Shown: positions 26,128 through 34,777 of the stretch, in pieces | How the letters are laid out: every line of letters begins with the position of its first letter | Position numbering within the stretch: position 1 is the first letter of the stretch | NCBI GenBank assembly: GCA_963805945.1 | Contig: CAWDVP010000002.1 | Span: 192,001-256,000 of the forward strand | DNA from: Vulcanimicrobiota bacterium | GTDB lineage: Bacteria > Vulcanimicrobiota > Vulcanimicrobiia > Eremiobacterales > Eremiobacteraceae | DNA: 64,000 nt | Direction: 5' to 3' | The notes under the pieces: model-generated | Database searches by the model: none | What the model saw: the letters and a program-made list of their open reading frames with translations, nothing else | Told to the model about the DNA's origin: nothing | Position numbers and translations under genes: made by a program

Positions 26128-27598
26128 GTGCGGCGCGTTCTCGTCGCCGCGCTTGCTGCAGCCGCCTTCTCCGCGCCGGTCGCCGTACCGGCCGCAACGC
26201 TTCAAGCCACGGTTGATTCGATCGCCGCGCAGGCACCGATGAGCCACGCGAATCTCGGCGTCTTCGCGATCGAGGCTTCCTCTGGCAAGGTGCTCGCATC
26301 GCACAGCGCGGATCGCGACTTCATCCCAGCGTCGACGTTCAAAGTTCTGCTGTCCGCCACCGCGTTGCATGTCTTAGGCCCGCAGTTCCGGTTCAAGACG
26401 ATGCTGTTCGCGCGCGGCACGATCGACGGTAGCGTGCTCGACGGCGACCTCATCCTCGTCGGCGGCGGCGATCCAGTGCTGACGACGCAAGATCTTAGCG
26501 CGGCCGCGGCTGCGGTGACGAGCGCCGGCATCCGCGAGGTGCGCGGTTCGCTGCTCGCCGACGCGTCGCTGTTCGACCAGCGCCGTTGGGGGCCGGATTG
26601 GGCGTGGGATGGCACGCCGTTCTACTACGAGGCACCGATCCAAGCGCTCGCCGCTGACGAAGGCACCATCGGCGTCATCATTAGACCCGGCGCGCGCACG
26701 GGTGACCTTGTCGGCGCAAGTCTGCTCCCGCCGAGCGCGGACTACACGATCGCGTCGCGAGCCGTCATGGGCACCGGGCCGTACGAGGACCCCGCGCGTT
26801 GTTCGCGCCGCATCGGCACCACGCAGATCCTCATCGTCGGGCGCATGCCCGTGGGCGCGTCACAAGAGACGCTGCATTGCGCGGTCGAGGACACGGCGGA
26901 GCACGCGGTCGGGATCCTGCGCAGCGAGCTCGGCAGCGCCGGCGTCCGCGTCGGCACAAAGCCCGCCGGCCCGCTGCCGCCGAACACGCCGCTCGATGTC
27001 ATCGACGACAGCCCGTTGCCGAAGGCGCCTTCTTCTTATGGCCGGCCGCTGTGGGTCCATGAATCGCCGCCGCTCATCGACCAGCTGCGCACGATGCTGC
27101 CGAAGAGCGACAACTTCATCGCTGAGCACCTGCTCAAGATGCTCGCGGTGAAACACTTCGAGCAGCGCGGCAATTTCATCGGTGGCGCCACCGTCGAGCA
27201 GCGCTTCGCGGTGCAGCAGCTCGGCATCGATACGGATTCGCTCGACGTCGAGGATGGCTCCGGGCTTTCAGCTGCCGACCGCATCACGCCGCACGATCTC
27301 GTCACGATTTTGCGCTGGACGGCAGCCGCAGCCGTTCGGCAGCGATTTCATCAATGCGCTGCCGCGCGCCGGCATGGAGGGGACGCTTGCGAACCGGCTC
27401 ACCGGCACCGATGCGGTGGGCCGCGTGCACGCCAAGTCCGGCTACATGCAGCATAGCATCGCGCTCGCGGGCTACGCCGACACGCTGCATCACGGCCGGG
27501 TGATCTTCGCGGTCATGGTCAACGACGCGACCGGACCCGACGGACCGTTCTTCGATCTCGAAGACGAGATCGTCGCGCGGCTGGTGGACCTGCCCTAG
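26128..27598 (+). CDS. dacB: D-alanyl-D-alanine carboxypeptidase/endopeptidase PBP4 (frameshifted)
   Basis: PASTFK, GGGDP, SDN, DGSGLS, AKSG. Confidence 0.9.
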
Positions 27599-28334
27599 CT
27601 CCCGAACCGCCTCTGGCGTTGCTGGAACTCCGCGATCGCCGCGATGAACTCATCGCGCGAGAACTCGGGCCAGCAGACGTCGGTGACGTAGAGCTCGGTG
27701 TACGCGCACTGGTAGAGCAAGAAGTTCGAGAGCCGGTGCTCGCCGCCGGGCCTGATGAGCAGATCCGGATCGGGCAGCCCCTTGGTGTAGAGATACTGGC
27801 CGATGGTGTCTTCATCGATCGATTCGAGGTCCGAACGCCCGTCCGCACATCCTCCGCGATGGCCGCGACGGCATCGCGCAATTCGGTGCGCGCGCTGTAG
27901 TTGACGGCGAGATTGAGGACGGTGCCGGTGTTGCCGGCGGTCTTCGCGACCAGATGCTCGAGCGCGCGGCGGGGCTTCTCGGGCAGCACTTCGTATTTGC
28001 CGATGACGCGCACGCGCACGTTGTCGCGGTTCAGCCCGTCGAGCTCCTGATATGCGAACGCGCTGCACAGCTCGAACAGGATCGAGATCTCCGCCCACGG
28101 GCGCGACCAGTTCTCTTCGGAAAAGCCGTACACTGTGAGCAGCGGGATCTTCAGGTCGCGCGCCATACGCACCGCTTCACGCAGGCTGGCGATGCCGCGG
28201 CGGTAGCCTTCCGCCACCGGCAGGTTGTGCTCGCGCGCCCAACGGCGGTTGCCGTCCATGATGATGGCGACGTGCGTCGGGATCGGCGCCGGTTCGAGCG
28301 CGATGAGGCGCGGCGTTGCTTTGCTCGAGATCAT
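27595..28334 (-). CDS. uppS: cis-prenyltransferase (frameshifted)
   Basis: HVAIIMDGNRRWA, FSEENWSR, PDPDLLIR, RLSNFLLYQ, RRFG. Confidence 0.88.
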
Positions 28335-28732
28335 GTGGTCGCCAGCCTTGCCGAGCGGCGCGCGTCCGCGTTGGACTTCTGGTGGACATCGCGTACGACC
28401 GATTCGAGCTCGTCGATGTAGGAGAGGAAGCGCGTGCGGCCGGTGTGCGTGATGCGGCAGATGGTCGTCGGCCGGCCGTGGCCCGTCTCCTTGGTGATGG
28501 TGACGACGTCCATCTCGGCAAGCGCGGCGAGATGCCGGCTGAGGTTGCCGTCGGTCAAGCCGCACGCGTCTTGCAGATCCGTGAAGCTCAAGCCCTCGGG
28601 ATGCGCGACGAGGCAGGTGCAGACCGCCAGCCTGCCGCGCTCGTGGAAGATGCGTTGCAGGCCGTTATAGGCGTACGGCGCTTCGGTGCCGTTGAGGCGC
28701 GGCGCTTTCTTGGCCGCTTTGCGAGTGTTCAT
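28331..28732 (-). CDS. Winged-helix transcriptional regulator (ArsR/MarR-like)
   Basis: IFHERGRL, LSFTDL, LTDGNLSRHL, GRPTT. Confidence 0.85.
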   Translation of the reverse strand: MNTRKAAKKAPRLNGTEAPYAYNGLQRIFHERGRLAVCTCLVAHPEGLSFTDLQDACGLTDGNLSRHLAALAEMDVVTITKETGHGRPTTICRITHTGRTRFLSYIDELESVVRDVHQKSNADARRSARLATT

Positions 28733-31750: not shown

Positions 31751-31799
31751 TTGCGGGAGCGGGCAAGCACGCCGTATAATTGGTGTGACCGGCGTCACA
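31751..31799 (+). promoter_or_regulatory. Sigma70-like promoter followed by a perfect CRP-type box
   Basis: TTGCGG-N18-TATAAT (31751-31780), then TGTGA-CCGGCG-TCACA (31784-31799). Confidence 0.65.
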
Positions 31800-31944
31800 T
31801 TGTGGCGTCGAAACCAATTGAATGCCCATTGTTGGCCCGGATCTTGAGCTGAAATGTTTGGTAGAACATAGCCAAGAGACGGTTCGCAGTGGTATCGTCA
31901 ACAGCACTTGGGGGGCTGATTCCACATCTTCAGCCTTAGTTAGC

Positions 31945-31986
31945 AAACAAAATGCGACCGCACCGCCTGGCAGTGGCGGTGCGATC
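31945..31986 (-). terminator. Putative intrinsic terminator on the minus strand
   Basis: Minus-strand RNA GAUCGCACCGCC-ACUGCCA-GGCGGUGCGGUC (12-bp stem including one G-U pair), then GCA-UUUUGUUU. Confidence 0.5.
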
Positions 31987-32036
31987 TAAGGCGTTGTGGC
32001 ATCCTCTCCGAGTTCTACGATTGCTGGAGGCATATC

Positions 32037-32198
32037 ATGGAGCTTGGTGGACACATTCACGCCTTTGCGTTATATGCTGGCGTGTTCTTCGGCCAGCTTG
32101 CACATACGCTCGAGACGCTGATCACGGGCGGGGCACACCCGGCCGAGACACTCATCACGGGCGGCGTGCATACCGCGGAAACCCTCATTACCGGATAG
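32037..32198 (+). CDS. 53-aa precursor peptide with three ETLITG cores
   Basis: GGAGG SD 6 nt upstream. MELGGHIHAFALYAGVFFGQLA-HTLETLITGGA-HPAETLITGGV-HTAETLITG. Core codons differ only synonymously. Confidence 0.85.
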   Translation: MELGGHIHAFALYAGVFFGQLAHTLETLITGGAHPAETLITGGVHTAETLITG

Positions 32199-32217
32199 GG
32201 CGATCATCGTCAGGTCC

Positions 32218-33549
32218 TCATGCGATCTCTCGGCACAGTAAGTCGACGAGCTGAGGATCGTATTGGGTGCCGGCCCGCTCTGAAAGTACGCGCAGCGCTT
32301 CCTGCTTGTTCAGTTGCGTGGTCGCATTGTGACCTGTAAGTAGGCACAAATAATCGCGGGTGATCGCGATAATGCGCGAAGCCACAGGGATGCGCGTCAA
32401 GCGCATGCCGTGTGGATAGCCAGTGCCGTCGAATGCTTCGCACTGATGTTCAACCGCATAAGCCACCTCTTCCGGAATGATGCGGGGTGCCTTGCGGAGC
32501 ACTTTTCCACCCAGTGTAGGATAGCGAAGGGCCTCTTGCTGCTGAGCGGGCGTCAAGTTAATGCCAGCTCGCAGTTCCGGAGTGAGCTTGCACTTCCCGA
32601 TCTCGTGGAATTCCGCCGCCCACGCAAGGTTCTCTAAGTCCGCCTTAACCATGCCAAGCTTGCGGCCCATCTGAACCGCAAGGTAGCGGACGTCGCCGGC
32701 GAACTGTGCATCATCAGGACTTAACAGGCCAATGAACTCTCGCATCATCTCGTGGAATTGGTTGACGACGAAATCGCGTTCATCGCGGGCCTCAACTGCT
32801 TGGATTATGCGCTCGAACATACGCGTGTGCGCGACGACGTAGTAGAAAACAATAGCCCCTAGAATTCCGCCGAAGCCGTACATCCCAGCCAAAAGGTAGG
32901 CCCAAAGAGCCGCGACAAAGCCAGCGCGCCAGTAGCGTACGAACGATGCCGGCTGGCCGAGAATTGCGAATCCTAGGATTACTAGTGCATTGTTTACAGT
33001 CTGCCAGATGATCCCAATCCCCACGACGCCGACGAGAACAAGGGGCGCGTAGAGAAAGTGCGATATTCGCGGCGCGAGGCCGAGAATAACTGCATAGGAC
33101 TGGACCATCAAGAAAACCGCTATAACAGATATCCCCAGTTGACCCGCCAATGCTGGTATCGCTTGGGCGGCTGGGCGACCGGCGGCAATCAGGCGCAAGT
33201 GAACGGCGGAAAGACCGACAACCGCAAGCGGTAGCGCCCACCAACCGACCATCGCCGTGGCTGCCGCTAGTATTGCCGCGACCGGCGCATGCACCGCGCG
33301 GAAACCTTCCTGGGGTCGCTCGTTCAGCGCGAGGAAAGCACCTACCAGCACGACGCTGATTATGGTTGCATACGAAGTGTCAAAATGCGGTGGAACGAGC
33401 ACCAAGAGTGCGGCACCCGCAATCAACAGTGCCCAATAGTAAGCGACTTTGAGTCCCTGTCGCCATGCAACAACATCTTGTTGCAGACCAGTTGCTGGAG
33501 CGCTGATCCGCTCGAGTTGCGCCTGCCCTGCCACGGCCATGACGCTCAC
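32218..33549 (-). CDS. Multi-pass membrane protein with degenerate HD-GYP domain
   Basis: Roughly 7-8 hydrophobic segments. C-terminal FHEIGK, DGTGYPHG, IPVASRIIAI, GTQYDP. Confidence 0.85.
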   Translation of the reverse strand: MSVMAVAGQAQLERISAPATGLQQDVVAWRQGLKVAYYWALLIAGAALLVLVPPHFDTSYATIISVVLVGAFLALNERPQEGFRAVHAPVAAILAAATAMVGWWALPLAVVGLSAVHLRLIAAGRPAAQAIPALAGQLGISVIAVFLMVQSYAVILGLAPRISHFLYAPLVLVGVVGIGIIWQTVNNALVILGFAILGQPASFVRYWRAGFVAALWAYLLAGMYGFGGILGAIVFYYVVAHTRMFERIIQAVEARDERDFVVNQFHEMMREFIGLLSPDDAQFAGDVRYLAVQMGRKLGMVKADLENLAWAAEFHEIGKCKLTPELRAGINLTPAQQQEALRYPTLGGKVLRKAPRIIPEEVAYAVEHQCEAFDGTGYPHGMRLTRIPVASRIIAITRDYLCLLTGHNATTQLNKQEALRVLSERAGTQYDPQLVDLLCREIA

Positions 33550-33636
33550 CAGTGCCTTTCGTCAGGTCCGCGCCCGGGATAACGTCATATTAGCGAGACG
33601 TATGGGGTCGCGACCCTGTGGATAGTATATCGAACA

Positions 33637-33694
33637 TGTGACGCAAATCCCCACGAATTTGTGACAGCCCGCACAGGGTATGACGCTCATCACG
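33637..33694. promoter_or_regulatory. Tandem CRP-like boxes upstream of the HD-GYP gene
   Basis: TGTGA-N6-TCCCC (33637), TGTGA-N6-GCACA (33660), TATGA-N6-TCACG (33679). Minus-strand TATACT at 33624-33629. Confidence 0.5.
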
Positions 33695-33709: not shown

Positions 33710-33732
33710 CCCGAGCTTCGCTCGGGCGCTAC
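33710..33732. repeat. REP-like palindrome, family C
   Basis: CCCGAGCTTCGCTCGGGCGCTAC, overlapping the serine hydrolase stop codon. Confidence 0.7.
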
Positions 33733-34694
33733 AGGCCGGTGGGAGAGGCCTCGGGCAGCGGGGCCTCGGTTGGCGTGGCCACCGGCAGCACCGGGGGGAC
33801 TTCCGCAGCGAGGAAGGCGTCGTAGGTCGCCCTGGAGGCCCTGCGGATAAGCCGGGCGCCGTCATCGAGATCGTCCAGGTGCGTCGTCAGCACGCAGATC
33901 ACGTACGGCGAGCCGGGCAACGCGACGATGCCGACGTCGTTGAGCGTGTCGTGCAGCGTGCCCGTCTTGTGCGCCACCACAACCCCGTGCGGCAAAGGCT
34001 CGGGCAGCAACTGGTTGTGCCGCTGCGCCGTGAGAAACGCGAGCATGACGTCGCTGGCCTGCTCGTTGATGAGCCGGCGCGTGGCGATCATGACGAGCAG
34101 GCGCATCATGTCATTGGTGCTCGTGCGCAGCTGGCGGATCGAGGGATCGCTCGCGTGAATGCTGGCGCCCAAGCGCGTCTGGGTCAGCCCCAGCCCGATC
34201 ATGGTCTGATTGATGTTCTCACGCCCGACCAGCCGGATGAGCATGTTCGTGGCCGTGTTGTCGCTGTTCGCGATCATGATCCGCGTGAGGTTGCGGACCG
34301 AGAACGTCATGCCCGCCGCGAAGTCGCACACGTCGCCGTAGCCGCAATCGCGGTCTTCCGGCAGCAGTTCCACTTGGCGATCGAGCGAGAAGCGGCCGAG
34401 CGATTCTTGCCGCAGCACTTCGACCATGACCGCGAGTTTGATCACGCTCGCCGCTGGCAGGTTCTCGTCGCCGTTGATGCTGATCGGCATGCGCCCTTGC
34501 GCGTCCGCGATCGTGATCGCGACCAAACCCGGCGTGTTATTGGCCAGGCGCCGCAGCTCGGGTTCGAGCGCGGCCATGCGAGCATCGCGCGCCACAGGCA
34601 CGTCAGGGGCCGGGAGCACGAGACCGGCGGACATGCCGCCGCCGGCCGCGATGAGCGCAGCAGCGAGCAGCATGGTGAAAAAGGCCCAACGCAT
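33729..34694 (-). CDS. Class A beta-lactamase-related serine hydrolase
   Basis: ASVIK, SDN and HKTG motifs, plus a signal or anchor sequence. Confidence 0.85.
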   Translation of the reverse strand: MRWAFFTMLLAAALIAAGGGMSAGLVLPAPDVPVARDARMAALEPELRRLANNTPGLVAITIADAQGRMPISINGDENLPAASVIKLAVMVEVLRQESLGRFSLDRQVELLPEDRDCGYGDVCDFAAGMTFSVRNLTRIMIANSDNTATNMLIRLVGRENINQTMIGLGLTQTRLGASIHASDPSIRQLRTSTNDMMRLLVMIATRRLINEQASDVMLAFLTAQRHNQLLPEPLPHGVVVAHKTGTLHDTLNDVGIVALPGSPYVICVLTTHLDDLDDGARLIRRASRATYDAFLAAEVPPVLPVATPTEAPLPEASPTGL

Positions 34695-34777
34695 ACAACG
34701 ACCACTCTTCTTGGCGGCGGCACGGGACCGCCTGCCTTTCGGCATGAATCGCGCGCTGCGTCACGAACCGACAGCCG

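Follow-up and report, generated by a model that had tools for sequence, protein, structure and literature searches.

A candidate peptide–receptor cassette with a membrane pseudo-HD-GYP protein in the Eremiobacteraceae

Comparison with described systems

Peptide signalling in bacteria is known mainly through kinases and RRNPP proteins. Here we analyse a two-gene cassette in a 64,000-nucleotide stretch of DNA from a Vulcanimicrobiota bacterium of the Eremiobacteraceae (contig CAWDVP010000002.1, positions 192,001 to 256,000; the window, whose own numbering is used below), in which the gene for a 53-residue peptide with three short cores converges on the gene for a membrane protein with an HD-GYP domain. 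Our reading, to which we give a probability of about 0.55, is that the two genes specify cognate, species-specific types of ligand and receptor, the processed cores being ligands of a pseudo-enzyme receptor under CRP-type control. The cassette works like the Phr or agr type, yet it fails membership of both.

Phr genes encode multi-core precursors of penta- and hexapeptides (PMC5199041). As in the Rap-Phr systems of that source, here a small precursor gene lies beside the receptor gene, the cores are of penta- or hexapeptide size with several near-identical copies per gene, and specificity types exist. However, Phr has a secretion signal, Rap is a soluble tetratricopeptide repeat (TPR) protein and the genes share one orientation, whereas the present cassette has an amphipathic leader, a membrane pseudo-enzyme as its receptor and convergent genes. 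The short, sometimes duplicated C-terminal core of RRNPP systems is present, but instead of a soluble TPR receptor there is a membrane protein matching HD_5 only, and instead of a Sec-type propeptide signal there is a leader whose first 8 residues contain neither Lys nor Arg in any of the 29 peptides.

Staphylococcal agr (PMC3673130) likewise has a hypervariable block, comprising the peptide and the sensing part of a membrane receptor between conserved flanks, and an amphipathic leader, the latter known from the title of a paper that PMC3673130 cites. Several features of agr are missing, however: the 82% complete genome gave no match to AgrB, the peptides have no conserved Cys or ring residue, their cores are not followed by an acidic tail, and the receptor is not a histidine kinase.

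The receptor resembles the MASE9-HD-GYP proteins HdgA and HdgB of Streptomyces venezuelae, in which an eight-segment membrane domain is fused to HD-GYP (10.1101/2021.11.05.467447) and HdgB has a degenerate active site (PMC6205966); here, in contrast, the domain scores below the Pfam MASE9 profile, no active tandem partner is present and the protein is paired with a peptide. The accessible text of the paper that defined MASE9 (10.1101/2021.11.05.467447) gives no ligand for it. The same text describes HnoD of Shewanella oneidensis, a degenerate HD-GYP protein (HD to SE, HHE to QLE) that inhibits another enzyme of cyclic di-GMP (c-di-GMP) metabolism and so offers a model for output, although HnoD is a soluble response regulator without membrane domain or peptide.

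Finally, the S-components of energy-coupling factor (ECF) transporters (NikM/CbiM, RibU, PanT, BioY, ThiT and FolT; PMC4525288) share with the receptor a six-helix fold with loops L1, L3 and L5 on one side. In FolT, according to that source, the acid group of the ligand is bound by Arg residues where helix 1 ends and within helix 6, and the receptor has conserved Arg in the same two elements. The L1, L3 and L5 loops and the pocket are periplasmic in FolT, whereas here these loops appear to be cytoplasmic, and the receptor also has two extra helices and a fused signalling domain. We found no description of a peptide and membrane HD-GYP system of this kind among the papers listed by literature searches with little coverage of subscription journals.

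The peptide gene and its exchange with the receptor

The cassette comprises the following features.

32037-32198, plus strand: peptide gene of 53 aa; leader of about residues 1-25, His-rich and amphipathic, then three cores.
32026-32030, plus strand: Shine-Dalgarno sequence GGAGG, kept in 9 of 9 loci of the genus.
32112-32195, plus strand: three ETLITG cores (codons 26-31, 37-42 and 48-53); the genus consensus is 5 residues, the first Asp or Glu.
32218-33549, minus strand: membrane receptor gene of 443 codons; likely start ATG 33540, where orthologues begin.
32800-33468, minus strand: receptor membrane domain (residues 28-250), eight segments, MASE9-like, with an ECF S-component fold predicted at 58-230.
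32221-32787, minus strand: linker helix and degenerate HD-GYP domain (HE for HD, Tyr343, HQ for HH, Arg398).
32070-33530, no strand: block exchanged or hypervariable between sister species, from sliding identity and approximately unbiased (AU) tests; ends approximate, placed on the window by homology.

The 53-residue open reading frame (ORF), its GGAGG sequence, the three H-x-[LA]-ETLITG units and the 19 nt between the stop codons of the convergent genes, all reported in the original prediction made from the letters of the window, are present in the sequence. The units recur at 11-codon spacing, their ETLITG copies differ exclusively at third codon positions, and among 1236 small Shine-Dalgarno-led ORF starts of the genome this is the only ORF with a 5-mer present three times. 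The receptor ORF has a hydrophobic N-terminal half and matches HD_5 at residues 287-434 (E 1.4e-25).

The same pairing is found throughout the family. Full-length or partial receptor orthologues occur in 25 of 32 family genomes, and at 29 of 29 distinct orthologous loci a small convergent counterpart of 35-64 aa lies opposite the receptor, so the neighbouring small ORF that the original prediction expected beside homologues was not missing at any of them. These loci derive from 32 with a receptor 3' end (26 genomic and 6 metagenomic, 3 being duplicates), at which the small ORF was found by a strict rule in 26 and by a relaxed rule in the remaining 6; ten distant HD-GYP loci (L021-L030) were excluded as non-orthologous. 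The unpublished genomes G128 (L007) and G233 (L018) are counted among the 25 of 32 genomes, the 29 loci, the 35 receptor proteins and the AU-test outgroup and in the pairs L007/L009 and L018/L038, and are outside the four exchange pairs described below. A peptide profile, built from these loci and thus partly circular, matched the same 25 genomes and one weak extra site. One genome, G041 (97% complete), is an informative negative: both genes are missing while ilvE and the serine hydrolase gene that flank the cassette elsewhere are still about 2 kb apart. The other six negative genomes either lack ilvE or have it at the end of a contig, and the 5' part of the receptor is present in two of the six. 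At the G041 locus (L043, C3:24500-30500) two paralogous ORFs (about 126-144 aa) and a third ORF of 316 aa take the place of the cassette, and a box-like sequence remains after ilvE.

Across 10 pairs of relatives, the ratio of nonsynonymous to synonymous differences (pN/pS) in the peptide frame is 0.33 with zero stops, changes are distributed 80/39/140 over the three codon positions, and the other five frames contain 12-37 stops. The 53-codon peptide gene is thus real and coding, and is always beside the receptor gene.

A membrane-domain profile had no match in 372 genomes from the phylum's other families (the unpublished G308 among them) and, against 1.84 billion sequences, returned 20 representatives that were all strong matches or fragments, so that no wider distribution was found in these collections. 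The peptide family has no match in Pfam (searched with the window peptide), in NCBIfam (with any of the 29 peptides) or in Atlas, and by eye no similar peptide is evident beside 8 distant HD-GYP loci. In one metatranscriptome run with a small share of words, two contigs of relatives cover only 31826-32110 (leader and start of the peptide gene); strand and level cannot be read from contigs and we do not count this as evidence.

All the peptides have a His/Gly-rich leader of about 25 residues (2-7 His per peptide), followed by an H-x-x-[DE] motif that opens a short C-terminal core. The leader, described as hydrophobic in the original prediction, is certainly there, but its predicted character is that of an amphipathic helix and not of a Sec signal: it has no basic n-region, and its amphipathicity exceeds that of shuffled sequences at p<0.05 in 18 of the 29 peptides. 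A plain transmembrane helix is also disfavoured, because Asp, Lys or Arg lies on the polar face in several lineages. In the genus of the window, three or four cores occur in 9 of 9 peptides, near-identical within a gene and unlike between genomes, with a free sixth residue: ETLIT three times, DSLIN twice, and ETIIA, ESLVN, DQMIN and DTLIN once each. In other genera the core is single at 19 of 20 loci and duplicated at the remaining one (L019), so the triple core, prominent in the original prediction, is confined to one genus and is ruled out as the defining trait. Double-glycine processing was likewise ruled out; the GG after the cores is not kept in orthologues and there is no C39 match in the 82% complete genome. 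Streptococcal SHP peptides also begin with an acidic residue, a possible likeness.

Within the genus, receptor similarity follows the core and not the flanking genes. L005 and L006, which have different cores, are 93% identical in ilvE, 95% in the hydrolase gene and 90% in leader DNA but 56% in the membrane domain, while the L006 receptor shares 77-80% identity with the other two receptors of ETLIT type. The pair L003 and L004, again with different cores, is sister-like in the flanks (ilvE 92%, hydrolase 90%) and leader DNA (89%), with 59% identity in the membrane domain. Similarly, L034 is 96% identical to L006 in the leader and 72% in the HD domain, against 85-89% to the DSLIN/DTLIN receptors. 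In AU tests on 6 genus and 6 outgroup rows, with groups chosen after seeing the identity comparison and the frameshifted L006 receptor read as two pieces, receptor data rejected the clades L005+L006 and L003+L004 (p-AU 1.5e-75 and 4.8e-5), as did the membrane domain alone (3.9e-4 and 1.3e-3). Conversely, flank data rejected the receptor clades (8.6e-69 and 6.4e-43), which are themselves not strongly supported (77/96 and 89/92).

The ends of the divergent block are sharp. In L005/L006, L003/L004 and L011/L016, DNA identity is 90-98% as far as about peptide codon 10, drops there to 46-90%, and is back at 95-100% where the receptor gene starts; the same left end is seen in a fourth sister pair, which is partial, and the same-core pairs L012/L013 and L014/L015 have no drop. 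In none of the four pairs is there an exchange end between the two genes. The kin compared are not independent. Peptide and receptor thus appear, on these comparisons, to vary and move together as a single unit with sharp limits, in conflict with the tree of the genes on either side; co-variation of the cores with the membrane domain was a check proposed with the original prediction.

The flanks of the cassette are an Aminotran_4 gene (ilvE) and a Beta-lactamase2 gene (the serine hydrolase). The low GC content pointed out earlier is real (0.572, with 99.6% of 4585 genome windows higher), but its reading as the mark of a special insert is not supported: GC is below that of the ilvE side in 21 of 26 loci, and a recent AT-rich island is ruled out by the same ilvE/serine hydrolase position throughout the family. 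The cassette is an old family locus, not an island. The serine hydrolase gene (33729-34745), whose product has SxxK, SDN and KTG motifs, is a constant neighbour outside the exchanged block and may have a role in peptide trimming.

Several further loci deserve mention. In genus g5 (L014, L015, L019, L039 and L040) the ORFs of peptide and receptor share 63-96 nt in antisense; L040 (G228:C32) is a second locus copy on a contig of 2.9 kb, probably mis-binned, whose ilvE, receptor and peptide all group with g5. L006, L020 and L042 have frameshifted receptor genes in assemblies of few contigs, from sequencing error or real inactivation. One homologue, P0006, is 69% identical in the membrane region and carries the source name Candidatus Binatus, of another phylum, which may reflect mis-binning or transfer; a second homologue, P0010, has a source name from Eremiobacterota. 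Elsewhere in the window, DacB-like and undecaprenyl-diphosphate-synthase-like genes, named by eye (26128-27598 and 27519-28565), each seem to be split over two frames.

Receptor domains and control of the two genes

The partner is, as predicted, a membrane protein with several transmembrane segments and an HD-GYP domain, but the HD-GYP motifs are degenerate. Compared with the solved HD-GYP structure 4mcw, the HD motif is HE in 32 of 35 orthologues, Tyr or Phe replaces the His of the KKH stretch in all 35, and in 34 an Arg stands in place of the late Asp. HNAT aligns with RPYK of 4mcw, a stretch with a role in substrate binding. The GYP-loop Tyr is kept in 30 of 35 and the HD-GYP fold is kept, with matches to 4mcw, 9rbz and 4r8z by Foldseek and VIA. 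The His-His of the HHE motif, given as conserved in HD-GYP domains by 10.1101/2021.11.05.467447, is missing from all 31 alignment rows compared. From its sequence the domain looks dead, a pseudo-enzyme without metal ligands family-wide, and because of this loss the output is unlikely to be c-di-GMP hydrolysis; the relay through HD-GYP catalysis that was first proposed is thus not supported. Elsewhere in the phylum, where HdgA/HdgB-like proteins occur as tandem pairs, the degenerate partner shows the same pattern. A second membrane HD-GYP protein (L057, G000 C3:168556-169899) keeps HD and has QH for HH; no small Shine-Dalgarno-led peptide is evident beside it, and it is a candidate partner, as are a GAF-GGDEF-HD-GYP protein (C3:102343-105039) and a PAS-GGDEF-EAL protein (C1:329911-331968) of the same genome.

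The membrane domain has eight segments with a short hairpin, N-terminal to HD-GYP, which fits the description of MASE9 (from model helices and alignment). None of the 35 members reaches the curated cut-off of Pfam MASE9 (PF20972), nor has that family any match in the genome. By language-model features (Atlas), the 10 best named hits all share the MASE9 family, with scores of 0.90-0.91; hhalign against 8 HdgA/B-like domains of the phylum gave no match (probability 0.1). Foldseek gave no match for the domain. When a structural model of it (predicted local distance difference test score, pLDDT, 82.6; predicted template modelling score, pTM, 0.80) was compared with 48161 chains, the top 14 fold matches were all S-components, the best being a transition-metal transporter (Z 12.6, root-mean-square deviation 3.6, 180 residues aligned). 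The six S-component helices map to receptor residues 58-230. Mean Lys+Arg counts in the loops matching L1, L3 and L5 are 1.5, 3.1 and 2.3, compared with 0-0.7 in the alternate loops. Because the pocket-side loops resemble in their Lys/Arg content the stretch at the N-terminus (2.5) and the linker before HD-GYP (2.2), the pocket side of the modelled fold appears to face the cytoplasm. Arg78, Gln137, Gln183, Asn187 and Arg208, invariant or nearly so, lie in the pocket-forming elements of the fold and would suit an acidic peptide. In different-core pairs the inner segments change more than the outer (ratio 2.8 vs 1.95; 7 and 7 non-independent pairs), which saturation explains in part.

CRP-type boxes upstream of both genes, as noted in the original prediction, are among the control elements found.

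31751-31780, plus strand: predicted promoter of the peptide gene, TTGCGG, 18 nt, TATAAT (31775-31780); putative function.
31784-31799, no strand: CRP-type box TGTGA-N6-TCACA over the predicted transcription start, putatively a repressor position.
31800-32036, plus strand: conserved leader of about 250 nt with two hairpins with UGGYAG loops (31854-31869 and 31959-31983).
33637-33652, 33660-33675 and 33679-33694, no strand: three tandem CRP-type boxes upstream of the receptor gene, weaker than the peptide-gene box.

In 28 of 28 loci whose upstream DNA is complete, the peptide-gene box has no more than 2 mismatches, and it sits over the likely start because a TATAAT sequence with at most 1 mismatch precedes it by 3-7 nt in 24 of them. 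Only two perfect TGTGA-N6-TCACA sequences exist in the genome, one being this box. The three receptor boxes have the same spacing in 6 of 6 genus genomes. The 32 family genomes contain 315 matches to TGTGA-N6-TCACW, compared with 40 for the reversed control, from which we conclude that a CRP-type regulon exists. Six of these sites are in this genome, 3 in pilin clusters (one inside a pilC-like gene) and one the peptide promoter; one-mismatch boxes precede a PilZ gene and a PAS-GGDEF-EAL gene. The CRP gene (C6:40830-41528) has pilD and pilM as its neighbours and occurs in 31 of the 32 genomes. In the type IV pilus cluster itself (L045, G000 C6:33380-46778), where this CRP-family gene is found, a sigma-70 family gene directly follows pilC and CRP-type boxes stand before two pilin genes. 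On sequence grounds the pilus link of the boxes is a lead.

In the leader RNA, a UGGYAG loop on a stem of at least 5 bp occurs in 17 of 29 leaders compared with 16 of 832 genome sites; the leader fold has a z of -5.2 and one compensatory pair change in 3 of 9. Stems vary, the hairpins are absent in genus g5, and a protein-binding RNA element is possible. In this genus a terminator scan reads the second hairpin as a minus-strand terminator-like site (31986-31956), in which case the receptor mRNA would be antisense to the whole peptide gene. A riboswitch was rejected, since Rfam gave nothing at E<=1 for the window and, across 16 loci, only 6 matches, all unrelated and below threshold. A reading of TGGCAG as a sigma-54 site was given up on inspection by eye, because the -12 element is not conserved and the flanking bases form stems.

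How the cassette may act

Specific contact between peptide and receptor is likely. In the mechanism that we favour, the amphipathic leader would take the precursor to the inner membrane, a protease would free the C-terminal core or cores, of 5 or 6 residues beginning with Asp or Glu, and the core would bind the S-component-type pocket of the MASE9-like domain; the core repeats in this genus would raise yield. The likeliest route would be export, trimming and re-import by an Opp-type transporter, as for Phr peptides, because the pocket side appears to be cytoplasmic, with direct sensing at the outer face as a minority route. The dead HD-GYP domain would pass the signal on through contact with another protein, probably an enzyme of c-di-GMP metabolism; both promoters would be bound by a regulator of the CRP family, and the most likely target would be type IV pilus behaviour (motility or DNA uptake).

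Several points weigh against this mechanism. The genome has 15 matches to Opp/Dpp-type binding proteins, and M50 proteases, but both families are near-universal and do not discriminate; the peptides lack a Sec signal, and no AgrB, C39 or DUF5317 match was found in the 82% complete genome. Core binding, processing and export are all inferred. The ratio of membrane to HD divergence in different-core pairs (1.4-1.9, 5 pairs) overlaps that in same-core pairs (0.9-1.6, 5 pairs, two with frameshifted rows), and tight linkage alone would carry neighbouring genes together. The best Z of the fold matches is within the ambiguous range for helical bundles, and the topology is derived from charge bias and alignment ranges, not from coordinates or experiment. 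Near-perfect boxes number 27 genome-wide with about 25 expected from composition, so that the pilus link rests on few sites.

Some of these points suit a small protein that stays uncleaved on the inner membrane face with its tail in the inward-facing pocket. MgrB and SafA are within-cell regulators of this kind, and here the repeats would add avidity. The amphipathic leader without a basic n-region, the cytoplasmic pocket side indicated by charge bias, the greater shift of inner segments when cores differ (partly saturation) and the lack of a dedicated exporter match all agree with it. However, a purely internal pair gives no clear reason for several types to be kept and swapped across species, and release better accounts for three or four spaced cores of which the last lies right at the C-terminal end; we consider this explanation unlikely.

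The long structured leader, the repressor-position box, the antisense arrangement that the terminator-like site and the g5 overlap imply, and the fact that toxin-immunity pairs also swap as blocks would all suit a His-rich, amphipathic membrane-active peptide held in check by the membrane protein or by the antisense 3' end of its gene, serving kin discrimination or acting as a type I-like toxin. This is improbable: variation and repetition concentrate in the short acidic tail, the partner has a ligand-binding fold and a signalling domain, and the database searches above matched the peptides to no known family. We find it quite improbable, too, that the genes are linked and co-regulated without contact, the receptor sensing a small molecule or metal and the peptide having a separate role such as metal binding. 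S-component folds do bind vitamins and metals, the top fold match is a metal transporter and the peptides are His-bearing, but the absence of an exchange end between the genes, their joint loss in G041 and the tracking of the receptor tree by the core all speak against independence. The original prediction in full, with exported cores sensed outside and switching c-di-GMP hydrolysis by this HD-GYP domain, is highly improbable, since the kept fold and GYP-loop Tyr are outweighed by the replaced HD Asp, ligand His, late Asp and His-His pair.

Tentatively, the cassette with processed, cognate cores may represent a new class of bacterial peptide communication, in which a membrane-inverted ECF S-component fold would be an inward-facing peptide receptor, a dead HD-GYP domain its output, and species-specific types would gate CRP-controlled type IV pilus behaviour. 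Because the adjacent gene supplies a candidate ligand in many natural types, cognate and non-cognate pairs could be compared in E. coli without culturing the host. If true, this would provide MASE9-like sensors with their first class of ligand, and would reveal peptide types in a little-studied, mostly uncultured phylum together with a new use of the S-component fold.

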